A stretch of 64,000 bases of DNA from Vairimorpha necatrix (Eukaryota), in the NCBI GenBank assembly GCA_036630325.1, contig CP142737.1:868001-932000 (forward strand). The letters run 5' to 3'. The translations under genes were made by a program, and so were the position numbers. Below are positions 5,300 to 55,916 of the stretch, piece after piece (position 1 is the first letter of the stretch; each line of letters opens with the position of its first letter). Below the pieces are notes generated by a model. The model did no database searches, had not been told where the DNA came from, and saw nothing but the letters and a program-made list of their open reading frames with translations.

Positions 5300-5906
5300 A
5301 TAAAGCAAAAAATTTTACACATCAAAAATATATTTTTTTATTTAAAAATGTTAAATTTAGTTTCTCTATTGAATTTTTACACATCAAAAATATATAATTT
5401 AGTTTCTACATTAATTTTTTCAAATAATATTAAACTTTCTGTATACGCTAAATGAGACATGATAAACTTATTATAAAAATTACCAATATGTTTCTAGCCA
5501 TAATTTTTTTTATTATTATAACAATTATATTCATTATTTAGTTGTAATTAAAAAATATAAAAAGATATAATTGGCACTTTAAATACCAAATGTTTCTTTT
5601 TTTCATCATATTTTCGTAGGATATCTAATATTTATTTGTTTTAAACTTTTTTCAAAACACATATAATATATTTGAATCAGCAAATTCAGGCTTACATAAA
5701 TTTACATGAACGCATAGAATTTTTCCATTCAAATCGCAGTAATGTCATTTTAAATTTAAATATCGAAAATATTAGAGTTGATTTAATGCAAAGAGTATTT
5801 GCAACAAAACTTATAATAAAATTCTTTTATATATGAGATAGTATAAGTAATTTAATATTCGAACATTATAAAATTACAAAATTTTTATTAATATCAAATT
5901 ATTTTA

Positions 5907-11693: not shown

Positions 11694-12763
11694 GGCTAAA
11701 ATCAGCTTTAGTGTAAAAAAACTGGGGGGGTCAAAATTTTTAAAAAATTGCCCCTTTTTTTAAAAAACGAAGGGAATGCTGAGTAAAGAAGAAATTGAAG
11801 ATTTTTATGAACATCTGCTAAGAAAGAAATATAAACAGAAATGTTCAATTTGTGGCTGGGATACATCTAGAGTATCTAACGAAACATTTTATTTGAGATG
11901 TAAATTTCCCAAATGCGGCCAAAGATTTTCAATTTGGAATAATACTCTATTTTCAAATAGTAAGATAGATCATATTCTTATGCTGAAAATTGTAAATCTA
12001 TGGACAATGGGACTTAAAATAGCGCATATTTCTAAAATTTTGGACTGTAATATGCAAAATGTAAGTGCTACACTTGAGAAATTATATAAATTAAAAATTT
12101 ATGAAAAATATATAAATAAAACAAAACAAATAGGAGGCGAAAATATCATAGTGGAGATCGACGAAAGTAAAATAGGTAAGAATAAATACCACAGGGGAAA
12201 ATTAGTTAAAGGATTTTGGTGTTTTGGGATGGTAGAAAGAACAACAGAAAAGAAGATAATATTTGTCATAATAAATAAAAGAAACAAGGATACATTGCTG
12301 CCGATCTTATTTAAGCATGTAAATTTGAAATCTATCATTCATTCCGATATGTGGAAGGCCTATATAACGTTAAAAAGCCATTACGCGGACCATAGAACTG
12401 TAAATCACAGTCAAACATTTAGAGACAGAGAGACAGGTGTGCATACAAACACCATCGAAGGAAATTGGAGGTCTTTAAAAGCCTCTATACCCAATAGGTG
12501 TAGAACATATGAATTTGCTGAAATATATTTAGTTCTATATATGATTAAAAGAAATGAGAGCGAAGACATCTTCAAAGCATTATTAAAATTATGTTTTTGA
12601 TATATTTTATTTATTTTAAAGTTAATTTTCATGCATTTTTATATCTTAATTATATTTTATTTTTTTTCTGAAGTTTTCTCTTCCCTTCGTTTTTTAAAAA
12701 AAGGGGCAATTTTTTAAAAATTTTGACCCCCCCAGTTTTTTTACACTAAAGCTGATTTTAGCC
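11694..12763 (+). mobile_element. Intact Merlin (IS1595/ISXO2-like) DNA transposon
   Basis: 83-bp TIRs (11694-11776 and 12681-12763) with GG...CC termini; 8-bp TSD GAGATAAA at 11686-11693 and 12764-12771. Confidence 0.95.
11776..12600 (+). CDS. Merlin/IS1595-family DDE transposase
   Basis: Zn ribbon CSIC...CKFPKC; VEIDES, IHSDMWKAY and VHTNTIEGNW motifs; open frame of 274 aa. Confidence 0.95.
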   Translation: MLSKEEIEDFYEHLLRKKYKQKCSICGWDTSRVSNETFYLRCKFPKCGQRFSIWNNTLFSNSKIDHILMLKIVNLWTMGLKIAHISKILDCNMQNVSATLEKLYKLKIYEKYINKTKQIGGENIIVEIDESKIGKNKYHRGKLVKGFWCFGMVERTTEKKIIFVIINKRNKDTLLPILFKHVNLKSIIHSDMWKAYITLKSHYADHRTVNHSQTFRDRETGVHTNTIEGNWRSLKASIPNRCRTYEFAEIYLVLYMIKRNESEDIFKALLKLCF

Positions 12764-14771: not shown

Positions 14772-15971
14772 ATGAAAATGAGTGACGACGAATTGATCGA
14801 ATATCGTGAAGATCTACAAAATTTTAAGAAAACTCAACCTAAAATCAAGTCATCAGCCCAATTCAAAGATTTTTTACTACGTGACGAACTCATGGAATCT
14901 ATAAAAGATGCCGCCTTTGAACACCCCAGTGAAGTCCAACAAATGGCCATACCAAAAGCAATTCTAGGCCAGGACATTTTATGTCAAGCAAAAAGTGGTA
15001 CTGGTAAAACAGCCGTCTTTGTTTTGTCAACTTTACAACAACTAAAAGTTGTAGACAAAGAAACTGTCATTTTAGTAATTGTCCATACTAAAGAAATGGC
15101 AGAACAAGTCAAGATGGAATATTTAAGATTTGGTAAGAAAATGGAAAATGTCACTGTAGGAGCAGTTTATGGCGGGAATGATATCGAAGAAGATATCAAA
15201 TTATTAAGCTCGTCTTCTCCTTCTGTACTAGTTGGTACTCCAGGGAGACTGGCAGAAATTGTAAGACGCCGTGCTTTGAATTTAAAACATGTCAAATATT
15301 TCGTAATGGACGAATGTGACAAAGTAATAGGAGATCTTGAAATGAGAAATGATACACAAGAAATATTTGTCAATACTCCGAGGAATAAACAGACACTAAT
15401 GTTTACTGCCACTTTGAACGAATATACTACTGTAGAATGTAAAAGATTCCTTGATAATCCATTTATCGTCAAAGTCGACGACGAGTCAAAATTAACTCTT
15501 TACGGGTTAAAACAGTCTTATTTGGAAGTAGACCAGAAGGAAAAACTTAACAGACTCGCCGACTTACTAAATTCCACTACATACAATCAGGCAATCATTT
15601 TTACTGCTAGTAAAATTATGCCTGTTAAAATATGCGATTTTTTGAAAAATAAAGGACTAGTCGTCATGGACTTGCACGCAGGACTAAAATCTACAGAAAG
15701 AAAAGAGAGACTTGTTAAATTTAAGAAATATGAATATAGAATTATGGTCACTACTGACTTAATGTCTAGGGGGATTGATGTACAAGATGTGAATTTTGTG
15801 ATAAATTATGATATGCCAGATTCGCCTGAAACTTATCTACATAGAGTCGGACGAGCTGGGAGATTTGAGACTGAAGGGCAAGCTGTGTCATTTATTTGTA
15901 GTGAGGAAGATAGTATAAAACTTAATGAGATACAAAGCAGATTTGAAATATCAATAAGTAAAATTGAATAA
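14772..15971 (+). CDS. SUB2: DECD-box RNA helicase UAP56/Sub2
   Basis: FEHPSEVQ, QAKSGTGKTAVFVL, DECD, LTLYGLKQ and HRVGRAGRF motifs; likely ATG 14772 after CCCTCA. Confidence 0.92.
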   Translation: MKMSDDELIEYREDLQNFKKTQPKIKSSAQFKDFLLRDELMESIKDAAFEHPSEVQQMAIPKAILGQDILCQAKSGTGKTAVFVLSTLQQLKVVDKETVILVIVHTKEMAEQVKMEYLRFGKKMENVTVGAVYGGNDIEEDIKLLSSSSPSVLVGTPGRLAEIVRRRALNLKHVKYFVMDECDKVIGDLEMRNDTQEIFVNTPRNKQTLMFTATLNEYTTVECKRFLDNPFIVKVDDESKLTLYGLKQSYLEVDQKEKLNRLADLLNSTTYNQAIIFTASKIMPVKICDFLKNKGLVVMDLHAGLKSTERKERLVKFKKYEYRIMVTTDLMSRGIDVQDVNFVINYDMPDSPETYLHRVGRAGRFETEGQAVSFICSEEDSIKLNEIQSRFEISISKIE

Positions 15972-15991
15972 AAAATATTGAATTTTGACAT

Positions 15992-15992
<1 letters not shown>

Positions 15993-16022
<30 letters not shown>
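15993..16022 (+). repeat. (TCA)10 microsatellite at the 5' boundary of the Helitron array
   Basis: Ten TCA units; the last one is the Helitron 5' TCA. Confidence 0.95.
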
Positions 16023-16023
<1 letters not shown>

Positions 16024-19000
16024 ATATATAAAAGAATTTTATTTAATTTTTTACCCCTAAAACTCAAAAAAAGAGAAAATTTAAAATGATAAAATTTTTG
16101 TTTTAAAACAAAATTAAATGCTTTCACTGTATTTTATAGACAATTTTAGATCAGATACGTTATTTACATTTTATTTATAAATCATTTTCGAAATGCTTAG
16201 AAATATGATTTTCTCCTTTTTAATTTCTTCCTTTTAGAGAATGAAAACAAAAATAATATGAAACAAAATGTAGAAAAAATTTGTTACTAATGTGTGAAAT
16301 TAACTCAATTGGATTAAAATTTGTTACTGAATTAACTTTACCACTGCTATGTTGATTCAATAATAATACTTAACTTCTAAAAATCACATTTGCTCCTTTT
16401 TAATTCTTCCTACCAGAAATGGAAAATCAAAAATCAAAACAAGAAACAAACATTAAAAAGATGATTTACAAACATTAGAAATTTATCAACTGAATAACAA
16501 ACTCAATTAATTTTTATTTAGACTAATATCAATTCTATTTATTAAAAAATCATAGTCTCATTTTTGTTTTCTTCTTTCCCAAAATGGAATTTCAAAAACT
16601 ATAAATACTTTTTTTTTCTTTACCCCCATTATGTTTACGAAAAATCAAACAAATTGCGATTTTAGTGAACAACCAAAAGCAACTATCACTATCTCTCAGG
16701 AGATAAGTTATAATACAGAAAATGACAATGTTATTTTCTATGGGGCCAATGCCTCTGTACATAACACAAAAAATAAAAAAACAAATGTCGGAGAAACAAA
16801 AAAAAGGAATTTTATATTCAGTTTCTCTGGCGAAAACAAAATACCATCCAACCCAACAAACAACACAGAAAAAACAGCTAGATTAACTGATAACACAAAT
16901 ATGGAAACTTTGACGGAGATTCTAGATATAGCTTGCAGAAAAAGAAAGAGAAACCATGCCGAACATTATTGTGGAGATCTCAAAGAAGAATGTGGCTTTT
17001 GTGGTGCATTACATTTTGCAGGAGAAGCAAGCAGTAATGGATTATACAAAAGCTGCTGTCATTTTGGGAAAGTTAAATTACAAAGAACAAGAGACTTTCC
17101 AGATGACATAAGGAATTTATTCATTGGAAAAGATAAAGATGCAAAAAACTTCAGAGAAAATATTAGATCTTACAATGCTGCTCTTTCTTTTGCTTCTCTT
17201 GGTGCTCAAATTGAGTCCATAAGTAATGGACCATATGTTTTTAAAATACATGGTCAAGTGTATCATAACACTTATAATGTAAATAATATGGACTCTAATG
17301 CACCAAAGAAGTATGCTCAATTATATGTAGTAGATAGTGATATGGCCAATGCTCAAAGAATGATGAATCTATCTAACAGAAATTGTGATATTAATATCAT
17401 GAGCAAATTAGATGGATTCATAAGATCAGCAAACCCATATTCCGATGCATACAAGAATATGTCTGAAGTAATAAAGGAGCAAAAGGAGATGGGAAAAGAA
17501 GTTAAAGACATTTCTATGGTCTTTAATAAGAATTTAGATAGAGATCAGAGAAGGTATAATGCTCCCTCTACAAGTGAAATCGCAATGATTTTTACTGATC
17601 CAAATGGAGAACCACCATTTGAAAGGGACATTAAAGTATATAGCAAGGGTCTTAATTCTGATAATTTACACTTGGATATTTTAAGTCCCCATCTAGATCC
17701 AATGACATATACTCTCTTCTATCCACACGGGGAAGCTGGATGGAATGCAAATTTGAGGGCCGAATCTTATCATGGAGAGGCACAGAAGATATCTTTGTTA
17801 CAATACAAAGTAGCACAGATATCCATAAGAAATGATAGATTCAACCCTTTGCTTTATGGAGGAAAGTTATTTCAACAATGGATTGTAGATTCATATCTAC
17901 AAGTAGAAGCAAATAATTTAAACTTCATAAAATCAAATCAAAAGAAGTTGAGGGTAGATCTTTACAAAGGTTTGGTAGATTATGTAAATAATGGGTCAGA
18001 AAGTTCTGCCAAGCCCGTGATCTTACCATCAAGTTTTCAAGGATCTCCAAGAAATATGAGAGAGAGATACCATGATGCAATGTCAATTGTAAGAAATTTC
18101 GGCAAGCCCGATCTTTTTATAACTATGACTTGCAATCCCAAATGGAAGGAGATTAATGAGAATCTATTTGAGGGACAGACAGCAGTTGATAGACCAGATT
18201 TGGTAGCAAAGGTCTTTAACTTAAAGTTGAAAAGTATGATGGAAGAGATTTTGGCAGGAAGAGTGTTTGGGGAAGTCGTGGCTCATGTCTATTCTATTGA
18301 GTTTCAAAAACGTGGACTTCCTCATGCACATATATTGATAATGTTAAAGGACAAGATTCGGGATGAAAATATGATAGATAAGTTTGTAAGTGCAGAAATA
18401 CCATCGCCCATGGAAAATGAAGTGTTACACGCCTGTGTAACAAAACATATGATTCATGGACCATGTGGACTAAGTAACTTGACAAGTCCATGTATGGAAA
18501 ATGGTCTCTGCACTAAGGAATATCCTAAGGAACATAATACTGAAACAAGGATCAATAAAGACGGATATCCTGAGTACAGACGATCTAGAGGGGCCGAGTA
18601 CAATGTAAGGGGCAACATTGTTACTAATGCTAACGTGGTCCCTTATAATGCTTATCTACTTGAAAAATACAATTGTCATATCAATGTAGAAGTTTGTACT
18701 TCTATCAAGTCAGTAAAGTATATTTTCAAATATATTTACAAGGGATTTGATTGTGCTGAAATGAGAATAACTGACAACAATGAAATTGATCATTTTGTGA
18801 ATTCCAGATATGTCTCAGCACCAGAGGCTACCTGGAGATTAATGGAATACAAGATGCATGGAAGATCTCATAAGATCCATAGACTTCCTGTGCATCTTCC
18901 ACAAGAACAATTGATCACTTTCGAAGAAGGCAGAGAAGAGGAAGCCGTTAGATTGTCCGATCTTAGACAGACTCCTCTTTTAGCCTACTTCAAATTGAAT

Positions 19001-21144
19001 GAAGTTGATGAAGGAGCACATCGATTTTCGTATAGTGAGATACCCTATCACTATACATATAAAAGGGGAGAATGGATTAGTAGAAAGAATAAGTATAGTA
19101 AGATAATTACTAGACTTTATTCTGTATCTCCAATAGAGAAGGAAAGATTTAGCCTCAGAGTTCTATTGATCAATGTAAAGGGGGCTAAGTCATATGAGGA
19201 TTTGAGAACTGTAAATGGTGTAGTTTACAGTTCTTTCGCAGAGGCGGTGGAAGAAAGAGGACTTCTTCAAGATGATAAAGAATGGGAAAGGGCTTTGGAT
19301 GAGGCTGTATCAACCGAGTCCCCATCAATAATAAGAGCATTGTTTGGATATATTTGTGCTTTCAATGAGCCTAAAAATACCAAAGAACTCTTTGAGAAGT
19401 ATCTTGGAGATATGTCTGAAGATCTAGATCAGAATAGTAGAGACGAAATATTAAGTAGATTAAAAGATATAGTTAATGCTCATGGATGGAGCTTAAATGC
19501 TCTGGGTTTAGATGAGCCGATTAACTATATCAAGAATGAAAGAGCCGTCTTTGATAATGAACAAGATCTAGATCAGATGATATCCTCTTTGAATGAAAAC
19601 CAGAGAAATGCCTTTGATATAATTACAGATAATATAGATAAAAGAGGCAATTTATTCTTTTTAGATGGACCAGCTGGATCAGGAAAGACATATTTATATA
19701 ATGTCCTGATCGAGTATCTAAGTAAGAGTAAAAAATCTTCAATACAGATGGCAACCACAGGTATTGCTGCAGATTTATTAAAGGATGGAAGAACAATGCA
19801 TAGTTGTATGAAACTTCCTGTTCCTTTGACAGAGACCAGCGTATCTAGACTAAAGCAAAATACTCCAGAAGCAGAGAGAATAATAAAGGCCTCTTTATTG
19901 CTAATAGATGAAGTTTCGATGATGTCAAAACATGCATTGAACGCAATAGATGAGGTGCTTAAAAGACTCTGTGACAATGATGATATCTTTGGAGGGAAAA
20001 CTCTATTGTTGGGTGGTGACTTTAGACAGACATCAACCATTGTAATGAAGGGTACTCCAAATGATATCATCGAGAACTCATTAATTAGTTCAAGACTTTG
20101 GGTACATGTCTGTGTACTAAAGCTTGAAACGAACATGAGATCTTATAATCAATTGGAGTTTAATAAGTGGTTGTTAGATATAGGTGAGGGGCGTACTAGA
20201 GATAGTAAAGGATGTGTGGAGATACCCAAAGAATATCTTGAAGAAGGGGACATAGTCGATAGCATTTTTGGAACAATCAAAATTGAAGCAGGTGATGATT
20301 CTTTGTTTGATAAGATTATCTTAACGAGCAAAAATGAACATGCAAATGAATTGAATGCCAAAGTGTTAAACCTACTTAATGGATCTTCTAGGGTATATGT
20401 GAGTTCTGATGCTATAGAATCAGAGGATATCGAAGAACAACTGAGATTTCCTCTTGAGTTCTTGAACATGCAACAGCCATCAGGACTACCTCCACATAAG
20501 TTAATATTGAAGACAGGGGCAATAGTGATGTTGTTACGCAATATTGATCCTAAGAATGGATTATTAAATGGGACCAGATTGAAGATAAAAGGTCTTAAAG
20601 ATAATTACATCTTAGGTGAAATAATAACAGGAAGGGGAAGGGGCACCCTTGCTGTTATACCAAAGATAGACATGATGCCAAGTGACACTCTTCTTCCGTT
20701 TGTACTTAAAAGAAGACAGTTTCCTGTGGTATTGTCATATGCGATGACAATACATAAAGCACAGGGACAGTCTTTTGACAAAGTGGGAGTGTATTTGCCT
20801 GAGGATGTATTTTCTCATGGTCAATTATACGTAGCATTGTCAAGAGTGAAGAAGAGTGAAAACTTGAGAGTCAAGTTGGGGGGAAACGGGGGCAATGTCA
20901 AAAATGTAGTTCTACGTGAACTAATTGGCCCATAAGAGCCAAGAGATGGAGAAATGCGCCGTGAGCGTACAAGCACTATGCCATTTTTCTTCCAATAAGG
21001 ATGAGATAAAAGATGATAAAATGCGCCGTGAGCGTACAAAAACTATGCCATTTTTTTAAAGAATAAATATAATGTGAAAAAATTAAAACATGTAACCATG
21101 CAAACACAAACAACCCGTTCTCAGAACGGGTGTGCATACGCTAG
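16020..21144 (+). mobile_element. Autonomous Helitron copy 1
   Basis: 5' TCATATATATAAAAG; 3' hairpin cccgttctcagaacggg (21114-21130) and CTAG terminus (21141-21144); encodes RepHel. Confidence 0.95.
16631..20935 (+). CDS. Helitron RepHel (Zn finger, HUH Rep, PIF1-family helicase)
   Basis: CGFCGALHF..CCHFGKV; LFITMTCNP; EFQKRGLPHAHIL; KYIFKYIYKG; GPAGSGKT; IDEVSM; GDFRQ; TIHKAQGQS; HGQLYVALSRV. Confidence 0.97.
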   Translation: MFTKNQTNCDFSEQPKATITISQEISYNTENDNVIFYGANASVHNTKNKKTNVGETKKRNFIFSFSGENKIPSNPTNNTEKTARLTDNTNMETLTEILDIACRKRKRNHAEHYCGDLKEECGFCGALHFAGEASSNGLYKSCCHFGKVKLQRTRDFPDDIRNLFIGKDKDAKNFRENIRSYNAALSFASLGAQIESISNGPYVFKIHGQVYHNTYNVNNMDSNAPKKYAQLYVVDSDMANAQRMMNLSNRNCDINIMSKLDGFIRSANPYSDAYKNMSEVIKEQKEMGKEVKDISMVFNKNLDRDQRRYNAPSTSEIAMIFTDPNGEPPFERDIKVYSKGLNSDNLHLDILSPHLDPMTYTLFYPHGEAGWNANLRAESYHGEAQKISLLQYKVAQISIRNDRFNPLLYGGKLFQQWIVDSYLQVEANNLNFIKSNQKKLRVDLYKGLVDYVNNGSESSAKPVILPSSFQGSPRNMRERYHDAMSIVRNFGKPDLFITMTCNPKWKEINENLFEGQTAVDRPDLVAKVFNLKLKSMMEEILAGRVFGEVVAHVYSIEFQKRGLPHAHILIMLKDKIRDENMIDKFVSAEIPSPMENEVLHACVTKHMIHGPCGLSNLTSPCMENGLCTKEYPKEHNTETRINKDGYPEYRRSRGAEYNVRGNIVTNANVVPYNAYLLEKYNCHINVEVCTSIKSVKYIFKYIYKGFDCAEMRITDNNEIDHFVNSRYVSAPEATWRLMEYKMHGRSHKIHRLPVHLPQEQLITFEEGREEEAVRLSDLRQTPLLAYFKLNEVDEGAHRFSYSEIPYHYTYKRGEWISRKNKYSKIITRLYSVSPIEKERFSLRVLLINVKGAKSYEDLRTVNGVVYSSFAEAVEERGLLQDDKEWERALDEAVSTESPSIIRALFGYICAFNEPKNTKELFEKYLGDMSEDLDQNSRDEILSRLKDIVNAHGWSLNALGLDEPINYIKNERAVFDNEQDLDQMISSLNENQRNAFDIITDNIDKRGNLFFLDGPAGSGKTYLYNVLIEYLSKSKKSSIQMATTGIAADLLKDGRTMHSCMKLPVPLTETSVSRLKQNTPEAERIIKASLLLIDEVSMMSKHALNAIDEVLKRLCDNDDIFGGKTLLLGGDFRQTSTIVMKGTPNDIIENSLISSRLWVHVCVLKLETNMRSYNQLEFNKWLLDIGEGRTRDSKGCVEIPKEYLEEGDIVDSIFGTIKIEAGDDSLFDKIILTSKNEHANELNAKVLNLLNGSSRVYVSSDAIESEDIEEQLRFPLEFLNMQQPSGLPPHKLILKTGAIVMLLRNIDPKNGLLNGTRLKIKGLKDNYILGEIITGRGRGTLAVIPKIDMMPSDTLLPFVLKRRQFPVVLSYAMTIHKAQGQSFDKVGVYLPEDVFSHGQLYVALSRVKKSENLRVKLGGNGGNVKNVVLRELIGP

Positions 21145-24100
21145 TCATATATATAAAAGAATTTTATTTAATTTTTACCCCTAAAACTCAAAAAAAGAGA
21201 AAATTTAAAATGATATAATTTTTGTTTTAAAACAAAATTAAATGCTTTCACTGTATTTTATAGACAATTTTAGACCAGATACGTTATTTACATTTTATTT
21301 ATAAATCATTTTCGAAATGCTTAGAAATATGATTTTCTCCCTTTTAATTTCTTCCTTTTAGAAAAAGAAAACAAAAACAATATGAAACAAAATGTAGAAA
21401 AAATTGGTTGCTAATGTGTGAAATCAACTTAATTGAATTTATATTTGTTTCTGAATTAACTCTAAAACTGCAATGTCGGTTCAATAATATACTTAACTTC
21501 TAAAAATCACATTTGCTCCTTTTTAATTCTTCCTACCAGAAATGGAAAATCAAAAATCAAAAATCAAAACAAGAAACAAACACTAAAAAGATGATTTACA
21601 AACATTAGAAATTTATCAACTGAATAACAAACTCAATTAATTTTTATTTAGACTAATATCAATGCTATTTATTAAAAAATCATAGTCTCATTTTTGTTTT
21701 CTTCTTTCCCAAAATGGAATTTCAAAAACTATAAATAAATTTTTTTTCTTTACCCCTCATTATGTTTATGAAAAATCAAGCAAACAACGATTTGAATAAA
21801 CAACCCAAAGCAACTGTTACTATCTCTCAGGAGATATGTAGTAATACAGAAAATAACAATGTTATTTTCTATGAGGCCAACACCTCTGTATATAATCAAA
21901 AAAATAAAAAAACAAATGCTGGAGAAACAAAAAAAAGGAATTCTATATTCAGTTTCTCTAGCGACAACAAAACACCAAGCAAACCAATAAACAACAAAAA
22001 AGAATTAGATGACTTAAAAGATAACAGAATAATAGAAGCTCTTACGGAAAGATTAGATTTAGCATGTAGAATCACAAGCAGAAACCATGCTGAACATTAT
22101 TGTGGAGATCTGAAAGAAGAATGTGCCTTTTGTGGTGCATTACATTTTGCTGGAGAAGCAAGCAGCAATGGATTATACAAAAGCTGCTGTCATTTTGGGA
22201 AAGTTAAATTACAAAGAACAAGAGACTTCCCAGATGACATTAAGAATTTATATATAGGAAAAAATAAAGATGCAAAAAACTTCAGAGATAATATTAGATC
22301 CTACAATGCTGCTCTTTCTTTTGCTTCTCTTGGTGCTCAAATAGAAACTGTATCCAATGGACCGTATGTATTTAAAATACATGGTCAAGTGTATCATAAC
22401 ACTTATAATGTAAATAATATGGACTCTAATGCACCAAAGAAGTATGCTCAATTATATGTAGTAGATAGTGATATGGCAAATGTTCAAAGAATGATGAATC
22501 CATCTAATAGAAATTGTGATATATATATCATGAGCAAATTAGATGGATTTATAAGATCTGCCAATCCATATTCCAATGCATACAAGAATATGTCTGAAGT
22601 AATAAAGGAGCAAAAGGAGATGGGAAAAGAAGTTAAAGACATTTCTATGGTCTTTAATAAGAATTTAGAAAGAGATCAGAGAAGATATAATGCTCCCTCT
22701 ACAAGTGAAATCGCAATGATTTTTACTGATCCAAATGGTGAACCACCATTTGAAAGGGACATTAAAGTATATAGCAAGGGTCTTAGTTCTGATAATTTAC
22801 ATTTGGATATTTTAAGTCCACATTTAGATCCAATGACGTATACTTTGTTCTATCCACATGGCGAAGCTGGATGGAACGCAAATTTAAGGATTGAGTCTTA
22901 TCATGGGGAATCACAGAAGATATCTTTACTACAATATAAAGTAGCACAAATATCTATAAGAAAAGATAAGTTCAATCCTTTACTCTATGGAGGAAAGTTA
23001 TTTCAACAATGGATTGTAGATTCATATCTACAAGTCGAAGCAAATAACTTAAACTTCATAAAGTTAAATCAGAAGAAGTTGAGGGTAGATCTTTACAAAG
23101 GCTTAGTAGATTATGTGAACAATGGAATAGAAAGTAATGCTAAGCCTGTAATTTTACCATCAAGCTTCCAGGGATCTCCAAGAAATATGAGGGAAAGATA
23201 CCACGATGCAATGTCTATCGTAAGAAATTTCGGCAAGCCCGATCTTTTCATTACTATGACTTGCAATCCAAATTGGAAGGAGATAAAGGAGAATCTATTT
23301 GAGGGACAAACTGCAGTTGATAGGCCTGATTTGGTAGCAAAGGTCTTCAACTTGAAATTAAAAAGCATGATGGGGGAGATTTTGTCAGGAAGAGTATTTG
23401 GGGAAGTTGTGGCTCATGTCTATTCTATTGAGTTCCAAAAACGTGGACTTCCCCATGCTCACATATTGATAATGTTAAAGGATAAGATTCGGGATGAAGA
23501 AAGAATAGATAAGTTTGTAAGTGCAGAAATACCATCGCCCATGGAAAATGAAGTGTTACACACCTGTGTAACAAAACATATGATTCATGGACCATGTGGA
23601 CTAAATAACTTGACAAGTCCATGTATGGAAAATGGTCTCTGCACCAAGGAATATCCTAAGGAACATAATACTGAAACAAGGATCAATAAAGACGGATATC
23701 CTGAGTACAGACGATCTAGAGGGGCCGAGTACAATGTAAGGGGCAACATTGTTACTAATGCTAACGTGGTCCCTTATAATGCTTATCTACTTGAAAAATA
23801 CAATTGTCATATCAATGTAGAAGTTTGTACTTCTATCAAGTCAGTAAAGTATATTTTCAAGTATATTTACAAGGGATTTGATTGTGTTGAAATGAGAATA
23901 ACTGACAACAATGAAATTGATCATTTTGTGAATTCCAGATATGTCTCAGCACCAGAGGCTACCTGGAGATTAATGGAATACAAGATGCATGGAAGATCTC
24001 ATAAGATCCATAGACTTCCTGTGCATCTTCCACAAGAACAATTGATCACTTTCGAAGAAGGCAGAGAAGAGGAAGCCGTTAGATTGTCCGATCTTAGACA

Positions 24101-26275
24101 GACTCCTCTTTTAGCCTACTTCAAATTGAATGAAGTTGATGAAGGAGCACATCGATTTTCGTATAGTGAGATACCCTATCACTATACATATAAAAGGGGA
24201 GAATGGATTAGGAGAAAGAATAAGTATAGTAAGATAATTACTAGACTTTATTCTGTATCTCCTACAGAGAAGGAAAGATTTGGCCTCAGAGTCCTATTGA
24301 TTAATGTAAAGGGGGCTAAGTCATATGAGGATTTGAGAACTGTAAATGGTGTAGTTTACAGTTCTTTCGCAGAGGCGGTGGAAGAAAGAGGACTTCTTCA
24401 AGATGATAAAGAATGGGAAAGGGCTTTGGATGAGGCCGTATCGACCGAGTCCCCATCAATAATAAGAGCATTGTTTGGATATATTTGTGCTTTCAATAAG
24501 CCTAAAAATACCAAAGAACTCTTTGAGAAGTATCTTGGAGATATGTCTGAAGATCTAGATCAGAATAGTAGAGACGAAATATTAAGTAGATTAAAAGATA
24601 TAGTTAATGCTCATGGATGGAGCTTAAATGCTCTGGGTTTAGATGAGCCGATTAACTATATCAAGAATGAAAGAGCCGTCTCTGGCATTGAACATGATCT
24701 AGATCAGATGATATCCTCTTTGAACGAAAAACAGAGAAATGCATTTAATACAATAACAGATAGTATAGATGAAAAAGGCAATTTATTCTTTTTAGATGGA
24801 CCAGCTGGATCAGGAAAGACATATCTATACAATGTCCTGATTGAATATCTAAATAAGAATAAAAAATCTTCAATACAGATGGCCACTACAGGAATTGCTG
24901 CAGATCTATTAAAAGATGGAAGAACAATGCATAGTTGTATGAAACTTCCTGTTCCTTTGACAGAGACCAGCGTATCTAGACTAAAGCAAAATACTCCAGA
25001 AGCAGAGAGAATAATAAAGGCCTCTTTATTGCTAATAGATGAAGTTTCGATGATGTCAAAACATGCATTGAACGCAATAGATGAGGTGCTTAAAAGACTC
25101 TGTGACAATGATGATATCTTTGGAGGGAAAACTCTATTGTTGGGTGGTGACTTTAGACAGACATCAACCATTGTAATGAAGGGTACTCCAAATGATATCA
25201 TCGAAAACTCATTAATTAGTTCAAGACTTTGGGTACATGTCTGTGTACTAAAGCTTGAAACGAACATGAGATCATATAATCAATTGGAGTTTAATAAGTG
25301 GTTGTTAGATATAGGCGAGGGGCGTACTAGAGATAGTAAAGGATGTGTGGAGATACCCAAAGAATATCTTGAAGAAGGGGACATAGTCGATAGCATTTTT
25401 GGAACAATCAAAATTGAAGCAGGTGATGATTCTTTGTTTGATAAGATTATCTTAACGAGCAAAAATGAACATGCAAATGAATTGAATGCCAAAGTGTTAA
25501 ACCTACTTAATGGATCTTCTAGGGTATATGTGAGTTCTGATGCTATAGAATCAGAGGATATCGAAGAACAACTGAGATTTCCTCTTGAGTTCTTGAACAT
25601 GCAACAGCCATCAGGACTTCCCCCACATAAGTTAGTATTGAAGATAGGGGCAATAGTGATGTTGTTACGCAATATTGATCCTAAGAATGGATTATTAAAT
25701 GGGACCAGATTGAAGATAAAAGGTCTTAAAGATAATTACATCTTAGGTGAAATAATAACAGGAAGGGGAAGGGGCACCCTTGCTGTTATACCAAAGATAG
25801 ACATGATGCCAAGTGACACTCTTCTTCCGTTTGTACTTAAAAGAAGACAGTTTCCTGTGGTATTGTCATATGCGATGACAATACATAAAGCACAGGGACA
25901 GTCTTTTGACAAAGTGGGAGTGTATTTGCCTGAGGATGTATTTTCTCATGGTCAATTATACGTAGCTTTGTCAAGAGTGAAGAAGAGTGAAAACTTGAGA
26001 GTCAAGTTGGGGACAAGAGGAAGCAATACTAAAAATGTAGTTCTACGTGAACTAATTGGCCCATAAGAGCCAAGAGATGAAGAAATGCGCCGTGAGCGTA
26101 CAAGCACTATGCCATTTTTCTTCCAATAAGGATGAGATAAAAGATGATAAAATGCGCCGTGAGCGTACAAAAACTATGCCATTTTTTTAAAGAATAAATA
26201 TAATGTGATAAAATTAAAACATGTACCCATGCAAACACAAACAACCCGTTCTCAGAACGGGTGTGCATACGCTAG
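21145..26275 (+). mobile_element. Autonomous Helitron copy 2
   Basis: Begins TCA immediately after the CTAG of copy 1; same hairpin, CTAG at 26272-26275. Confidence 0.95.
21762..26066 (+). CDS. Helitron RepHel, second copy
   Basis: 1434 aa, all motifs as in copy 1. Confidence 0.97.
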   Translation: MFMKNQANNDLNKQPKATVTISQEICSNTENNNVIFYEANTSVYNQKNKKTNAGETKKRNSIFSFSSDNKTPSKPINNKKELDDLKDNRIIEALTERLDLACRITSRNHAEHYCGDLKEECAFCGALHFAGEASSNGLYKSCCHFGKVKLQRTRDFPDDIKNLYIGKNKDAKNFRDNIRSYNAALSFASLGAQIETVSNGPYVFKIHGQVYHNTYNVNNMDSNAPKKYAQLYVVDSDMANVQRMMNPSNRNCDIYIMSKLDGFIRSANPYSNAYKNMSEVIKEQKEMGKEVKDISMVFNKNLERDQRRYNAPSTSEIAMIFTDPNGEPPFERDIKVYSKGLSSDNLHLDILSPHLDPMTYTLFYPHGEAGWNANLRIESYHGESQKISLLQYKVAQISIRKDKFNPLLYGGKLFQQWIVDSYLQVEANNLNFIKLNQKKLRVDLYKGLVDYVNNGIESNAKPVILPSSFQGSPRNMRERYHDAMSIVRNFGKPDLFITMTCNPNWKEIKENLFEGQTAVDRPDLVAKVFNLKLKSMMGEILSGRVFGEVVAHVYSIEFQKRGLPHAHILIMLKDKIRDEERIDKFVSAEIPSPMENEVLHTCVTKHMIHGPCGLNNLTSPCMENGLCTKEYPKEHNTETRINKDGYPEYRRSRGAEYNVRGNIVTNANVVPYNAYLLEKYNCHINVEVCTSIKSVKYIFKYIYKGFDCVEMRITDNNEIDHFVNSRYVSAPEATWRLMEYKMHGRSHKIHRLPVHLPQEQLITFEEGREEEAVRLSDLRQTPLLAYFKLNEVDEGAHRFSYSEIPYHYTYKRGEWIRRKNKYSKIITRLYSVSPTEKERFGLRVLLINVKGAKSYEDLRTVNGVVYSSFAEAVEERGLLQDDKEWERALDEAVSTESPSIIRALFGYICAFNKPKNTKELFEKYLGDMSEDLDQNSRDEILSRLKDIVNAHGWSLNALGLDEPINYIKNERAVSGIEHDLDQMISSLNEKQRNAFNTITDSIDEKGNLFFLDGPAGSGKTYLYNVLIEYLNKNKKSSIQMATTGIAADLLKDGRTMHSCMKLPVPLTETSVSRLKQNTPEAERIIKASLLLIDEVSMMSKHALNAIDEVLKRLCDNDDIFGGKTLLLGGDFRQTSTIVMKGTPNDIIENSLISSRLWVHVCVLKLETNMRSYNQLEFNKWLLDIGEGRTRDSKGCVEIPKEYLEEGDIVDSIFGTIKIEAGDDSLFDKIILTSKNEHANELNAKVLNLLNGSSRVYVSSDAIESEDIEEQLRFPLEFLNMQQPSGLPPHKLVLKIGAIVMLLRNIDPKNGLLNGTRLKIKGLKDNYILGEIITGRGRGTLAVIPKIDMMPSDTLLPFVLKRRQFPVVLSYAMTIHKAQGQSFDKVGVYLPEDVFSHGQLYVALSRVKKSENLRVKLGTRGSNTKNVVLRELIGP

Positions 26276-26796
26276 TCATCATATATATAAAAGAATTTTA
26301 TTTAATTTTTTACCCCTCTTTTTAGTGATTTTGTAAAATCTAAACTTCTTATTATAGCTTTTTGTGTCATTGTAATATCAAATATAAACTCATTGAAGGA
26401 TTTTGACTATCATAGGCGCGTGTACTGTATGTTAATACATTTTTATTTTAATTCTTTGTTTTGTAAAACTCAGTTCCAAAATATCGTCAGAATCGTTTTT
26501 TAGAATTTATTTAACCCTTCACGAAAAATTGTAAAAACATCTGACAAATAAAGATTTTGAATATAAGTGTCAAAAAGTGAGCTTAGAAGTTCCCAAAATT
26601 ATCTCATTGAGATTATTAAATGTTTTAAAACAACATTACTCCTTATATGTTACTAAAAAGTTTTTTAAAAATCATGCTTTCTCCTTTTCAAATTCATTCA
26701 TTCCAAAATGGAAACGCAACAAAATTTACCGAGGAGGGACATATTATAAAACAAAACGATTTAAGCCCGTTTTCAAAACGGGAAAGCATACGCTAG
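26276..26796 (+). mobile_element. Non-autonomous Helitron NA1 (521 bp)
   Basis: 5' TCATCATATATATAAAAGAATTTTATTTAATTTTTTACCC; 3' cccgttttcaaaacggg-aaagcatacg-CTAG. Confidence 0.93.
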
Positions 26797-27318
26797 TCAT
26801 CATATATATAAAAGAATTTTATTTAATTTTTTACCCCTATTTTTTGTGATTTTTAAATTTCTAAACGGCCCTTTTGATATTTATTATGTTATTGTAATAT
26901 CAAATATAGATTTATTGCCTTAATCTGAATATTCTAAGTGTGTATGTTATTAGTTAATACTTTTTAATTTTGATTATTATTTTTGTAAAACTCAGTTCCA
27001 AAATATCGTCAGAATCGTTTTTTAGAATTTATTTAACCCTTCTAGAAAAAATCCACAAAAACATTAACCAAAAAAGATTTTGAATATAAGTGTCAAAAAT
27101 GAGCTTTAGGTGCTTTAAAATTATCTCATTGAGATTATTAAATGTTTTAAAACAACACTACTTTTTATATGTTACTAAAAAGTATTTTTCAAAATCATGT
27201 AAAAACTCTGTCAAATATAATCAGCCAAAAATGGATACTTTACAAAATTTACCGAGACGGGACATATTATAAAACAAACACATTTATCCCGTTTTCAAAA
27301 CGGGAAAGCATACGCTAG
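26797..27318 (+). mobile_element. Non-autonomous Helitron NA2 (522 bp)
   Basis: Same termini as NA1; followed by T27319, closing an A^T target with A15992. Confidence 0.93.
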
Positions 27319-28903
27319 TTATTATATAATATAATTTTAGTGCGTGTAGTATCATATATGTAAAAGATCAGTTAATTGAAAATATAAACAAGACTTATAC
27401 ATCTATTTCAAATATGTAATGTTTAAAAAAGAACAGTGCTAGTAATTTTCATTCTTTTTGCAGCTTATTCTGCGAAGAAGAATAAACTAAAATGGGGCCT
27501 ATACGCAGTACAGAAACATATGAAAAAACTAAGAGCAGATCTTCGTATTGTACAAGATAGACTCATATACAGAGGAAAATGAAGCAGTAAAGTAAACACT
27601 CTCGAGACTATAAGGTAAGGGAGTATGTAAAGCATACTAGCTACTTTACTTTAAAAAATAAATATTTTGTTAAATAGAATAAACTGATAGTTTATGCAAG
27701 AAATTTTCTGTATTTAAGCTTTTTTATGACGTGTAACAAACAAACAAACTCAAAAATATATTCATAAAAATTATTTTTAACATTTCAATATACATTAGTA
27801 TTTCTTACGCATAGTAAAATTTCAAAGTCTAAATTGTTAGGACAGAATTTTTCTCAGTTAAATCCTGCATAAGATTAAAAATATATAATCTTAAATTGGA
27901 TATTTTGCAATAATCAAGTGTTTGTGGATTATTTAAATATTTGTTTTATTTTGATGACATAGAGCACATGTATTGTGGTCTTTAAAAATTTTATAAAAAA
28001 CATCTAAATTTTTAGTCTATTAGTTAAAGCATCATAGAATGGGCTTATACTGATTTAATTGATCATTAAAATAAGACAAAATCATATATAAGAAAATGAA
28101 TCTACTATATAAAAACAGGAGCGTATGTACTAGAAAACAGAATCTTTATATTAAACCTTTAAAACATCTCACAAATATATAAAACGTTGATATTTGACAG
28201 CTTAATGTTCATCAAACACTCCATTAGTTAAAACATATATAAATTATACTAGTAAAATTTATTTCTATAAAAATTATTTATATTTGTCAGTTTTTTATGT
28301 CTATATTCAAATTTACCTTTTCTCTTTTTCTTTATAGGGGTAAGGAAAATAAAAAAAAGTTTTAAGAAATTAATTATGAGGCTTTAAGTCAACGGAAAAA
28401 GTAAAATTTTTTAAATTATCTGAAAATTTTGAATAAATAATAAATTTATTTTATTTTTGTTTATTAATATAAATCATTTTTTGACAGTTTTTTGAAGATG
28501 TGATTAACTTGATAGTCAAAATGTGACATCAACTCTGATTTTACAATCTTTTCGAAATGAAAAGAACTTTTCATATTATACTCTTTACCAATAATCATAA
28601 AAACAAAATTTTTTAGATAAAATGTCTGCACATGTTTAAATCTCTTAAAAAATTTCTATTTTGTCTTTTAGAAAATATCGTAAAATTTTAATTTTAATTA
28701 ATGTCAAATTTTGCATTTAATTAATTAAATATTTACAAAAAAAATAATTCTTCATATTTTTGTTCATAAAATAGTATTACTTACTTTTCATATTTACAAT
28801 ATTTTTTTTTGTTTTTGTTTATATTATTCACATATATTATAAATTATTATTGTTTACATTAACTTTTTTTTATTTAAATAAAAAAATTAATACCCAAACT
28901 AAT

Positions 28904-29326
28904 ATGAAAAAAATTCAAACAATTACAAAAAAAGAAAAATTATCTAAAAAAAATATTAAAGACAAAACATGTACACTAAAAGACAAAAGTAATCTACTCA
29001 AAAAAGAAAAATTATTTAAAAAAAATAATATACGTACTTATTTTTATGACGAGACTTTTAACAATATGAATAATAATATTCTTGATTATACAGTAAAAAA
29101 CTTTAATGCTGAAACTAGCAGAATACCAAGATGTAGTACGGGATTTGATAATAAAATTCCAGGATATTTTAATAGTTATTATGGAACATTGTTAAAAAAT
29201 ATAGAAGTTTTAGGTGATAAATATGATTATGATTTGTATAATAATTTTAAAGGGGAATGGTGTTATTTAAATGTGGTTAAAAAGAAAGAAAATGAGATGT
29301 ATTTGGACTTTTTTGAAAAAAAATAA
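28904..29326 (+). CDS. Hypothetical lysine-rich protein
   Basis: Within ORF 28850..29326; ATG 28904 follows a CCC motif; AATAAA overlaps the stop. Confidence 0.55.
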   Translation: MKKIQTITKKEKLSKKNIKDKTCTLKDKSNLLKKEKLFKKNNIRTYFYDETFNNMNNNILDYTVKNFNAETSRIPRCSTGFDNKIPGYFNSYYGTLLKNIEVLGDKYDYDLYNNFKGEWCYLNVVKKKENEMYLDFFEKK

Positions 29327-30427
29327 AAAAGTGTTTTGTTTAAGTATAATTTGTTTATTTTCGGTGACACGTTTGAAATGTTTTGTAAACAAACATTAGC
29401 TTTATTAAAGTTTATTATATACTTTTTAGGTTTTTATTTTAAAGTAAAAAGAAAAAATTTCGTTTGTTAAATTTATTATTTAGAACAATTATAAAGTCTT
29501 AATAACAATTAAAGTATATCTTGAGTTGTTAACTAGGATATTAAATTATATAATAAGAAAAATAGATAAAAAATACATAAAAATTTTACAATTACAAACA
29601 TATGTTATTAAAATTTGATAAACAAATGTAGTTATTTTGTTAAATGTAAGAAACAACAAGTTAATTAATATTTAACAAAACGTATCTCCAAAATAATATC
29701 AATAATCTACCTAATTTGTTCTAGGATTTATAAAATATAATTGATAAAATATGGATATATTAAAAACTGTATGTATCTTGTACATTAAAAATTTTATATT
29801 TATTTATCAGGATTTAATGTAAAAATAAAAGTTCTAGTTTAATTTTATAAACGACAATTTTGTTGATTCTCAGTAAAAAAAAAAGAGTTCTTATTTATGA
29901 ATCTGTTTTAAAACTTCATAAATTGAACATAATTGCTTAGGGTCGCTTTAATTAGTTTATTTTCCATTTTATTTCTCATACATTCAATCTGTAGGTTTTT
30001 TTCTTGCGGCCAAGAATTCTCAGCTAATGTGATAGTACTAATAATATAACCATATAACAGTATTAAATAAAATATTTCTTCATACTTTTGAATCATCAAA
30101 TGACAAAAAAATCGAAGCAACTAAAATTATCAAAATAAAAAATTCTAATCTCACAAATAATCTAGAATAAATAAATTTTTTTCTTGATAACTATAGAAAA
30201 ATGTTTTCTTTGAATAAGTAGTTTTTAACGAATGATAATATTGATTAAATAAAAAAATGCAATAAAAATATTGCCCTCGATGCTTTGAAAAAAGGTACAT
30301 TTCGTAGATTAAAAATATGAAAAGTTATTAAAAAAAATTTAATAATTACTATATAAATCATAAAATATCTCTCGTTTAATAGAAATGTGAAATCATTATT
30401 CAGAAGTATAAAAAATTTATGAAAATA

Positions 30428-30947
30428 CTAGCGTATGCTTTCCCGTTTTGAAAACGGGATCTAAATGTTTGTTTTATAATATGTACCTCCTTTATCTTTT
30501 TGTGAATTTTCATTTTTTGATGAATGAATTTGAAAAGGAAAAAACATGATTTTGGAAAATACTTTTTAGTAACATATAAGAAGTAAAGTTTAGCTAAAAA
30601 CATTTAATAACCTCAATGAGATAATTTTGGGAACTTCTAAGCTCATTTTTCGACACTTACATTCAATTTCTTCTTTTGTCAATTATTTTTGTGAATTTTT
30701 TCTAGAAGGGTTAAATAAATTCTAAAAAACGATTCTGACGATATTTTGGAACTGAGTTTTACAAAACAAAGAATTAAAATGGAAATGCATTAATATATAA
30801 TATATGCACTAATAATTATCAAATTAAAACATTAAATCTACATATGATATTATATTAACGTAAAAGGCTCAAAATGTATCGTTTAGAAATTTCAAAATCA
30901 CAAAAAAGAGGGGTAAAAAATTAAATAAAATTCTTTTATATATATGA
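30428..30947 (-). mobile_element. Non-autonomous Helitron NA4 (520 bp)
   Basis: Reverse-complement termini: ctagcgtatgctttcccgttttgaaaacggg ... cttttatatatatga. Confidence 0.93.
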
Positions 30948-31468
30948 CTAGCGTATGCTTTCCCGTTTTGAAAACGGGATCTAATTGTTTAGTTTTTTAA
31001 TATGTCCCTTTTCGGTAAATTTTGTTAAGTTTCCATTTTAGGATTATTAAATTCGACAAAGTGAAGACATGTTTATTAGAAATACTTTTTAGTGACATAG
31101 AAGAGGTAAAGAAGAGTTAAAACACTTATGAGTCTGATTGAAATAATTTTGGGGACTTTTAAGCTCAATTTTCGACACTTACATGTAAGATCTTTATTTG
31201 TCAGATCTTTTTACAATTTTTTCTAGAAGGGTTAAATAAATTCTAAAAAACGATTCTGACGATATTTTGGAACTGAGTTTAACAAAAATAATAATCAAAA
31301 TAAAAATGTATTAACTGATAACTTACACACTTAGAATAGTCAAAGTAAAGCAATAAATCTATATTTGATATTATAATAACTTAATAAGATCAAAATAAAT
31401 AGTTTAGAAATTTCAAAACCACAAAAAAGATGGGTAAAAAATTAAATAAAATTCTTTTATATATATGA
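30948..31468 (-). mobile_element. Non-autonomous Helitron NA3 (521 bp)
   Basis: Head-to-tail with NA4; the pair is flanked by A and T on the element strand. Confidence 0.93.
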
Positions 31469-31875
31469 TAGGACAAGTTGTTGTTTATCTTTGATACAGA
31501 AGATATCAAATGGCATTGCAAAGTTTCTCATTACAAAGTTGTCCAAAGGAGCACACAGATGCAGATAGAGAACCTGTCTTGTCAGCAAAGACTTCCACAG
31601 ACTTGTTTTTTCAATTTTTTTACCCCTTAGAATGAGAAGACAAGAAAATCAAAAAAAACTGTAACAAAGATATTGCATGTTAAACAAGTAGTTTATGTTT
31701 AAAAAGCAAGAATCATCTTGCGACAAGGGTTTATCAGATGTAAAACATGTTTAATATAATAATTAGAAAACTTAAAATAATATTTATACGAATTTTAGTT
31801 TAGATTCTAAAATAATTAAAAAAAACCAAAATATAAACATTACTATGTATATATAAAGGGTACAGACCTTTATTA

Positions 31876-32344
31876 CATGGGTTTGAATCGTTTAAGTGCA
31901 CATGTTTGAATTTCTATAGCGCCATATTTGAATTTCTATATTCCCATGTTTGAATTTCTATATTCCCATGTTTGAATTTCTATAGTGCCATAAAATTTAA
32001 ATTTTTAAAATTTAGAAACAAGTATATTGAATAAAGTCTTCTCACTTTTGCCTTTTCTAATCAGCTAATCATGTTTATTCAAACAAGCAACACTCACAGC
32101 TATAATCTAAACTAAAAACATTATCAAGACTTGGCCAATTAAACTATTTGAAGAATGAAGACGAAAATCTCGCTTTGAGAACTGAGCAGAATTCTTCGAT
32201 GGGATTTACTTGCGAAGAATAAGGAGGCAGAGATATGATATGCTTGTAAGAAAAATCAAGAGCGTAAGAAGACTTTATTTAATAAACTTGTTTATTTATT
32301 CTAAAAATTTAAATTTTATGGCACTATAACGATTAAAACCCCTG
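31876..32344. mobile_element. Tc1/mariner-type non-autonomous element with long TIRs
   Basis: TA-CATGGGTTTGAATCGTT... / ...AACGATTAAAACCCCTG-TA; inverted similarity continues through tatagtgccataaaatttaaattttta...aataaagtcttct; left arm has a 4x22-bp expansion (31901-31988). Confidence 0.75.
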
Positions 32345-33849
32345 TAATATTTATTTTATCTTTTCTTCTCTGTTTAGTAAAAAAATATTAAAAATAAATT
32401 TTTATTTATGCAATCTAGAGTTTATTAAATAACTAAAAATGTCACACAACATCCTTCCTGTACCCTCTACAGTCATGTAGGGCCCTTGGATTTGAACCCT
32501 TGGGCCGTTATATCTCAATTACGGCCGAGCCATAGACGCAACAAATACGTCATCGTCGACAAACAAATGGCGAATATAAAATGTCTTACTGTTTAAAAAT
32601 GTCATAATATTGAAACTGTACAAGTGACTAGCTTTCCATTAACTAATGACAGGTCTGACACTTGAAAAATAAGAGGATGAATTTCTAGCTCTTCACGATG
32701 CCAAAAAAGCATAAGAATTTATAAACATCAAATAAATACAGAGTATATAAACAAGCCGAGCGGCCATGGAGTTTGCTCGCACCACAAGAAATTTATGCAT
32801 CTTTGATCACCATTAAAGGATTTTTTTGGACTGATTATATTGGATCAATCGGGCCAGAATAATTTGCTCACAAAAATTAAATGATTGTTTGAGAGCACTG
32901 CCCAATGTTGTGTTTAGCATCTACGATGTTAGTTACTTAGCAAAATGCTGTATGATATGTTACAAAACATGATCTCTATTGCTTGTTCATCATTTTAAGA
33001 GCAGTTAAAGAATATAATCTAATTTTATCGAACGGCGTGGAATATGCCAATATTGAGATAAATTTAGCTTATAGCACAAGGATTATATCTGAAGAACAAT
33101 TTTGTTACTCTAGCAACAGTTTAACACACAAACATTGCGTTGTTTTGGAAATGAAAAAAAACGTTTAGCCAAAGACTTCCAAAATGTAAGTATTTTTAGC
33201 TGACGGAAGAGATCATATTGTTTATACAATAATAACCATGAAATGGCAGAATTGTCTAAAAAATAAAAAATTGGAGTAATATAGTATTATAAATGTTAAT
33301 TACTTTATTTGAATTTTCCATCCCCTCTTTTGGAAATGATTTTAAATAGTTTAAGTAGCCAATCAAATACGTCTATTTGTCGAAAGATGATTGGCTGGAC
33401 TTGATGGGCTACGACAGACTGATTTTCAGACTGAAAATAGGTAGAATCTGTGTAACTTCTAATATTTAACATTACACTCAGTTGTTTGAGTGATTTTCGG
33501 CAATCTTATTTATTTTAGAAAAAAAGGAAGATAATTTCAGTTTTTTGATTTTTATATTATTATAAAAGTCTATAGCTACAATTACATTGTCACCAATTTT
33601 TTTAATTTATAGGAGATATGGATCAATGAAAGACGGTTGTTTTTTGCGTGGTAATTTGAAACAACTGAACCAGTTTCTGTTTTTTTCTTAAAGAACACTA
33701 ATCGCATTTTCATTTTTGATTTTCTGTAACAAGCATACATTTATTTTCTTCTATGCTTTCCTCTGAAGACTCGTTCTTATCCTGCGTAAGAACATAATTA
33801 AATCCTAATTTGTTTAGAAATAAGTTTGTGGAACCGGCTTGTCGCACTA

Positions 33850-55217: not shown

Positions 55218-55916
55218 TGTCACCGTTCGGAGCGGACGCCAGGGAAAATGCTTATTTGAGAAGGGTAAAAAATTAAAAAAAAAATTACCCGTTCGGAGCG
55301 GACGCCAGGGAAAATGCTTAGTTAAAAAGGGTAAAAATTTAAAAAAAATTACCCGTTCGGAGCGGACGCCAGGGAAAATGCTTACTTGAGAAGGGTAAAA
55401 AATTAAAAAAAAATACCCGTTCGGAGCGGACGCAAGGGAAAATGCTTACTTGAGAAGGGTAAAAAATTTAAAAAAAATTGTTGTTTATTTGTAATTTGTA
55501 TTTAAAATTTCTTTAATTTTAAGGGCATGAAAATAAAATTGAATAACAATGAAAGACAAGAAGTTTTTGTCTTTTTACAGACTGGTATTGTAATAGACAT
55601 AATACAATTTAATAAAGTAAAATTATGCAAAGAAGTGATAATGATATTATAATAGAAGAAATAAGTACTAGAGATCTAAGGTTGCTTGGTAATGAATAAA
55701 GTACTAAAAATTTTGTTTATTTTATTTTTCTCCTTTTTTCATTATTCCCTCCCATCATTATAAAAAAATAGCAAAAATTTACCCCTCAAAAAATCGAGAT
55801 AAAACTTTGGTTATCATTTAAGACGAACATTTATTTGTTCTTATTTTTTGGTTCGATCCTCACTGAAGAGATTTTTTTTAATTTTTTACTCCTGGCGTCC
55901 GCTCCGAACTGTGACG
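55218..55916. mobile_element. Non-autonomous TIR element (Ginger2-like termini) with a tandemly amplified left end
   Basis: TGTCACCGTTCGGAGCGGACGCCAGG ... CCTGGCGTCCGCTCCGAACTGTGACG; 5-bp TSD TACAA at 55213-55217 and 55917-55921. Confidence 0.75.
55223..55478 (+). repeat. 4 x ~65-bp tandem repeat
   Basis: Units start at 55223, 55289, 55353 and 55417: ccgttcggagcggacgccagggaaaatgctta.ttgagaagggtaaaaaatt(a)n. Confidence 0.95.

Follow-up and report, generated by a model that had tools for sequence, protein, structure and literature searches.

How do unlike Helitrons come to stand end to end with no host nucleotide between them? The question is raised by a 64,000-nucleotide (nt) stretch of contig CP142737.1 from the microsporidian Vairimorpha necatrix, which is the window analyzed here and to which all coordinates refer. 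The window contains two trains of exactly abutting Helitrons, one of which combines autonomous and non-autonomous elements. Both the target choice of Helitrons and the origin of their tandem arrays are still debated. For the trains described here, we put at about even odds the explanation that they were built by serial integration of separate family members at the terminal cleavage site of a resident copy.

Two trains of head-to-tail Helitrons

Train 1 (15993-27318, plus strand) consists of four canonical Helitrons in the order A1-A2-N3-N4 with zero spacer; every joint reads CTAG/TCA (the slash marks the junction), and the train as a whole is bounded by A15992 and T27319. The first two units, A1 (15993-21144, plus strand, 5152 nt) and A2 (21145-26275, plus strand, 5131 nt), are autonomous, whereas N3 (26276-26796, plus strand, 521 nt) and N4 (26797-27318, plus strand, 522 nt) are non-autonomous. 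A1 starts with TC and ends with CTAG, with a 3' hairpin at 21114-21130; the corresponding hairpin of N4 is located at 27288-27304, and T27319 follows the end of this unit. The number of TCA triplets at the 5' ends of A1, A2, N3 and N4 is 10, 1, 2 and 2, respectively (15 in total), the (TCA)10 run at 15993-16022 (plus strand) forming the extreme 5' end of A1. An earlier note on this DNA had described four Helitrons fused without spacer at CTAG/TCA, as well as the TCA counts and the two flanking nucleotides; each of these details is found again when the sequence is read directly.

The window also includes a second train that was absent from the earlier note. Train 2 (30428-31468, minus strand, 1041 nt) comprises two non-autonomous units that are likewise joined at CTAG/TCA. 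N5 (30948-31468, minus strand, 521 nt) is the outer 5' unit, preceded by A31469, and N6 (30428-30947, minus strand, 520 nt) is joined to N5 and followed by T30427; each of these units carries one TCA. Train 2 is 3.1 kb away from train 1 and converges on it, and both trains are contained within 16 kb. In the window, the 28-nt 5' terminus of the family occurs six times with 0 mismatches, compared to 0.01 occurrences expected, and the 20-nt 3' pattern has six exact occurrences. All six copies of the family in the window belong to trains.

Independence of the units

The alignment of A1 with A2 shows an identity of 94.6% (4862 matches, 257 mismatches and 45 gap columns), and each of the two encompasses an intact RepHel open reading frame (ORF) of 1434 amino acids (aa), located at 16631-20935 in A1 and at 21762-26066 in A2 (both on the plus strand), with 88 aa different between the two proteins. 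The differences between the two ORFs are distributed over the three codon positions as 46/51/143 (that is, 143 of 240 at third positions); the synonymous divergence (dS) is 0.165, and the ratio of nonsynonymous to synonymous divergence (dN/dS) is 0.20. The synonymous divergence is mosaic along the gene: the proportion of synonymous differences (pS) is 0.20-0.41 in codons 1-600 but falls to 0.02-0.05 in codons 601-900 and 1051-1434. Within codons 151-600, where pS amounts to 0.21-0.41, the proportion of nonsynonymous differences (pN) is 0.025-0.033. The mosaic pattern points to recombination between lineages or to gene conversion between neighbours. Given that A1 and A2 diverged under purifying selection, their differences accumulated over successive rounds of transposition rather than in place.

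The four short units, N3 to N6, are nearly equidistant, with all six pairs 81.7-83.4% identical and no closer match between units that occupy the same position in the two trains. The alignment of these units contains three invariant runs, namely 37 nt at the 5' end, 55 nt in the interior and 31 nt at the 3' end, whereas outside these runs the share of invariant columns is only 57%; in 2000 column shuffles, no invariant run exceeded a length of 29. The interior run lies within a block of 62 positions that is confined to the short units (26459-26520 and 26981-27042 on the plus strand, 30705-30766 and 31226-31287 on the minus strand), with 55 consecutive positions invariant in all four. This block is absent from A1 and A2, has no match in Rfam and shows no strong fold; an Rfam search of the region 15000-33000 yields a single weak chance match. 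The 55-nt invariant block may represent a cis element of the non-autonomous family. Between the long and the short units, homology is restricted to the termini and spans about 40 nt on the 5' side and some 20 nt on the 3' side.

Exact junctions and integration at a resident end

Inspection of the junctions shows that all four internal ones, three in train 1 and one in train 2, are exact head-to-tail joints, such that four of the six copies have the CTAG of another unit directly before their own TCA. The window contains 7600 AT sites, so by our estimate each exact adjacency would be expected by chance about once in several thousand cases. The 7-mer CTAGTCA by itself is not significant in the window (8 matches against 4.26 expected, with 7 of 100 shuffles reaching 8). 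Every junction falls at the TCA boundary and none falls in the adjoining (TA)4, although (TA)4 offers further A/T sites; this distribution points to an enzyme-defined site rather than to local AT richness. Because exact joints between diverged units are not accounted for by chance, insertion at the terminal cut site of the resident is the simplest explanation.

For the order of events, the insertion side and the enzymatic basis, we infer the following scheme. In its canonical form, integration would occur between the host A and the 5' T of the resident, so that the A/T rule is kept, and would yield the product host A / new unit ...CTAG / TCA... resident. The RepHel nuclease would cut the target with the same specificity that it uses to nick the 5' end of the donor; the 5' end of a resident copy would then be the best target in the genome and, once nicked, would accept the incoming strand. 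The earlier note had proposed that serial insertion at the 5' end of a resident element builds mixed trains. The exact joints between independent units fit that part of the proposal, which we consider to be as probable as its converse, but the accompanying account of leftover TCA units fails (see below).

A stronger version of this scheme, which we advance tentatively and regard as possible but not probable, is that integration in this family homes in on the family's own site of 5' cleavage. Under this version, the A/TC nick site of a resident would be the preferred site of integration. Any member of the family, autonomous or not, would stack upstream of residents, so that in a compact microsporidian genome a large family could be confined to a few trains beside genes, and the outer 5' end, being nicked repeatedly, would see its TCA repeat expand; both of these corollaries are as tentative as the homing itself. 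If true, this would be a site-specific eukaryotic rolling-circle transposon with a target defined by its own end.

Evidence from other contigs

Two public runs (here X1 and X2) share roughly half of their sequence words with those of the left flank, in the sense that about half of the flank's words occur in them, and their contigs were placed on the region 25900-32600, with the A1/A2 repeat excluded. One X1 contig of 323 nt, with about 95% similarity to the flank, connects position 30424 to position 31468 and thus skips 1043 nt, compared to the 1041 nt of train 2. This bridging contig indicates that a homologous site without train 2 exists; the discrepancy of 2 nt remains. Two other X1 contigs, one reaching to 26808 and one starting from 30939, must cross CTAG/TCA, as no more than 12 and 9 nt of the following unit can be placed before the sequence ceases to resemble the window; these contigs hint at further junctions with other variants. 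The parts of the flank that X1 leaves uncovered, e.g., 27468-27915, carry no information. The summed depth on the short units reaches tens of thousands in X1 and hundreds in X2, compared to about 30 and about 2 on pieces of the flank, which is not a copy number. Joints on ‘opposite strands’ that connect 264xx-266xx with 308xx-313xx appear to be cross-matches between copies of the short unit and were not used.

Several points weigh against serial integration at a resident end. The side of insertion, at the 5' A/T or at the 3' G/T, is ambiguous. The contigs of both runs are short and break in the shared termini, and the kind of X1 is guessed as ‘DNA?’. The skip of the whole of train 2 fits a single composite arrival as well as it fits serial insertion, and no intermediate with one unit present and the other absent is found at the train 2 site, a result from one site and two runs of contigs. 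Among 12 of the 193 loose ends, at least two X1 contigs and one joint show the 3' end of a short unit followed by unrelated sequence after 27321, so that 3' ends without a following Helitron exist elsewhere. Finally, recombination or gene conversion acting on A1 and A2 could blur the history of these copies.

Alternative origins of the trains

The skipped train is also a reason to consider that the units travel together. If a junction was formed on a rare occasion and RepHel then read through the internal 3' ends and moved two or more units at once, the trains would have arrived ready-made and there would be no landing pad. Besides the X1 contig that lacks train 2 in its entirety and the failure to see a partly filled site there, such composite mobilization draws on the bypass of 3' ends, which is treated as accepted Helitron behaviour in PMC5148889. 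Nevertheless, N3-N4 and N5-N6 are not copies of one dimer, given the narrow range of the six identities and the lack of positional pairing, train 1 mixes long and short units, and the first junction would still have to be explained, so that we rate this origin as rather unlikely. The same head-to-tail product would result if a circle with a CTAG/TCA joint recombined with a resident copy via the shared termini. Circles with precise end joints have been demonstrated for Helraiser (PMC5876387); the short units have 37 nt in common at their 5' ends and 31 nt at their 3' ends, and the mosaic pS of A1 and A2 points to recombination in this family as well. Yet the homology between long and short units is short for crossing-over, and as the product is the same as that of integration at a cut site, there is no positive evidence that speaks for recombination, which appears improbable.

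Two further explanations seem highly improbable. In bats and plants, Helitrons in tandem are usually explained by a rolling-circle concatemer (PMC5876387; PMC12001565; bioRxiv 10.1101/2024.11.21.624632), and a local tandem duplication that diverged in place would produce a comparable arrangement. The units of such a concatemer would be alike in length and sequence, but those observed here are 5.1 and 0.52 kb long, with like-sized pairs 95% and 82% identical, and where A2 meets N3, a unit of 5131 nt abuts one of 521 nt to which it is similar only at the ends. Decay in place would yield neither a dN/dS of 0.2 nor invariant termini next to interiors that have diverged by 17%. On the same grounds of dN/dS and of invariant termini beside diverged interiors, the claim of the earlier note that the units are not a single rolling-circle concatemer stands. 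An assembly artefact, in which haplotypes or repeat copies would have been stitched in tandem, might be suspected because A1 and A2 are 95% alike and because microsporidia of this group can be polyploid (PMC12558613). However, the joints coincide exactly with element ends, the two trains are on opposite strands and combine very unlike units, the SUB2 gene of the window is found on a contig of 992,507 nt, and X1 contigs cross sequence of the junction type.

The variable TCA run

The segment 15993-16022 is the only run of three or more TCA in the 64 kb, and all eight matches to three consecutive TCA fall there, compared to 1.05 expected. The remaining five units carry one or two TCA, and in train 2 the counts are one and one, with no pile-up. 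The earlier note envisaged that serial insertion pushes leftover TCA units to the outermost end. This does not work because insertion in a TCA run only redistributes the units and cannot make ten. With 15 TCA in train 1 and one or two in each other unit, three insertions cannot have left ten behind; a run of this length requires slippage, a donor that was itself rich in TCA units at its end, or a TCA repeat of the host that preceded the insertion. The absence of any other (TCA)≥3 run in the window ties the run to the end of the element and makes it unlikely that a host (TCA)9 was already present at the target. Judging by these counts, the variable (TCA)n with which each element begins, a short microsatellite of 1, 2 or 10 units, most likely changes by slippage. 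It may be speculated that slippage is favoured by repeated nicking of the exposed outer end.

A canonical Helitron family in microsporidia

All six units have TC(A) at the 5' terminus and CTAG at the 3' terminus, in agreement with the TC and CTRR ends of Helitrons. Both long and short units contain a 3' hairpin with a stem of 7-8 bp, 14 nt before the end, where Helitron1 elements have a short GC-rich hairpin about 10-15 nt from the 3' terminus, and one compensatory pair (C-G to T-A) distinguishes the hairpins of the two size classes. Terminal inverted repeats, a mark of Helitron2/Helentron, are absent, the best local match between the 5' 40 nt and the reverse complement of the 3' 40 nt being 4-5 nt. 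No target-site duplication is visible at the outer flanks (A15992/T27319 and A31469/T30427), although the X1 contig without train 2 skips 2 nt more than the length of the train in a flank that is about 95% alike. In the RepHel protein of A1, the Pfam domains Helitron_like_N (3e-62) and PIF1 (6.4e-55) are detected, and Helitron_like_N, PIF1 and Pif1_2B all exceed the cut-offs. The HUH motif (residue 562), the paired tyrosines (697), Walker A (1013) and Walker B (1092), all numbered as in A1, are kept in both A1 and A2. Taken together, the termini, the hairpin, the lack of inverted repeats and the RepHel protein assign both trains to a canonical (Helitron1-type) rolling-circle transposon family of a microsporidian of the Nosema/Vairimorpha group, with at least two autonomous RepHel lineages and diverse non-autonomous partners of about 520 nt that share only the family termini. 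Just 3' of the RepHel stop codon, both autonomous copies contain a 67-nt unit repeated twice (20952-21088 and 26083-26219).

The family resembles the canonical Helitron1 elements Helibat and Helraiser in its TC/CTAG ends, sub-terminal 3' hairpin, A/T flanks and lack of inverted terminal repeats, as well as in the build of RepHel, with an HUH motif, paired tyrosines and a Pif1-type helicase. It differs from these elements in the variable (TCA)n at the 5' end, in the microsporidian host and in the distance to known proteins, the closest protein being only 55% identical among the best 120 of 513 matches; the named matches come mostly from arthropods, nematodes and reptiles. The 28-nt 5' terminus has 0 matches in metagenome, prokaryote-genome and viral contigs, and a scan of metagenome contigs for the RepHel protein gives 280 pattern matches with no relative among them. 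Helitron-type ORFs are known from Nosema and other microsporidia (PMC4202319). Among the papers listed by a literature search on Helitrons in microsporidia, none deals with Helitron trains in the Nosema/Vairimorpha group. This is a new Helitron family with a behaviour that has already been reported elsewhere, and a known pattern is extended to microsporidia.

Relation to known tandem Helitrons

A close precedent comes from maize, where two unlike Helitrons are joined at CTAG/TC; consecutive insertion was proposed, with the 5' A/T or the 3' G/T left open as the site (Du et al. 2008, PMC2267711). As in the present trains, CTAG stands directly before TC between different elements. The maize case is one pair in a large plant genome, whereas the V. 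necatrix window has one train with four units and another with two, including two intact autonomous copies. Insertion near resident 5' ends has also been described in fungi. One option put forward for the three tandem copies of Metarhizium acridum is that they arose by insertion into the 5' end (Chellapan et al., PMC5148889), and self-insertion near 5' ends is described for FoHeli of Fusarium (PMC5148889; see PMC13342296). New copies in these fungi likewise settle at or in the resident 5' end, and the presence of several 5' termini is interpreted as an indication of activity. Unlike the elements described here, FoHeli and the M. acridum elements are Helitron2-type with asymmetric inverted ends, and their insertions, which fall inside the 5' region or a few bases from it, leave duplicated 5' pieces, in contrast to the exact end-to-start joints of the V. 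necatrix trains. The arrays of bats, plant centromeres, Xenopus and Hydractinia are head-to-tail, as are the trains, and are ascribed to rolling-circle concatemers; however, these arrays consist of like units that are often truncated or minisatellite-like, whereas the trains bring together separate lineages and two size classes.

Against the view that Helitron arrays are only concatemers, the trains are a clean example from nature that speaks for the other route, in which a new copy integrates at the end of a resident one. Should a genome-wide census reveal an excess of such joints, the family would become a simple system in which to assay how a eukaryotic HUH transposase chooses its target, and it would become clear how so many Helitrons can be tolerated in the compact genome of a parasite.

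Genomic neighborhood and other traces of the family

The window is AT-rich (G+C of 19-38% in 2-kb steps). Upstream of train 1, a host gene on the plus strand (14772-15971) encodes a SUB2/UAP56-type DEAD-box helicase of 399 aa (Pfam DEAD and Helicase_C), which is 87% identical to a protein of Vairimorpha ceranae and 81% identical to one of V. bombi, in keeping with a host from the Nosema/Vairimorpha group; the gap between the SUB2 stop codon and the start of train 1 is 21 nt. The flank of train 2 at 31469-32600 has an X1 contig depth of 155-1067, which is 5-35 times the depth at 28055-28431 (30), and a 22-nt tandem repeat occupies 31901-31991 within this flank. Possibly, train 2 is embedded in another repeat.

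Apart from the trains, the window contains a lone 22-nt copy of the 5' terminus (5815-5836, minus strand, 22/22 matches), with one TA fewer. It lies about 70 nt 3' of an ORF that is encoded on the same strand, and it is not followed by the body of a Helitron. A relic of the 3' hairpin region of the short units (46644-46663, minus strand, 20/20 nt) lacks the final bases including CTAG and is, by its sequence, probably a decayed 3' end. A match to the 3' pattern with 3 mismatches at 38989 is not a Helitron end, and the site 38989/40027 is not a Helitron joint. Wider similarity around 46644, 5815 and 38989 was rejected, as the local alignment scores are 129-255 compared to a maximum of 229 and a mean of 181 in shuffles, so that only the short exact matches are credible. 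At 55223-55479, there are four tandem copies of a 64-nt unit that are 92% alike; on the minus strand, this unit includes a stretch resembling the sub-terminal 5' sequence of the Helitrons and a motif resembling an arm of the 3' hairpin, and the array may be a Helitron-derived minisatellite. A transposon of a different type, Merlin/IS1595-type DDE, occupies 11694-12763, with an ORF of 274 aa (Pfam DDE_Tnp_IS1595, 2.2e-16) inside perfect inverted repeats of 83 nt.

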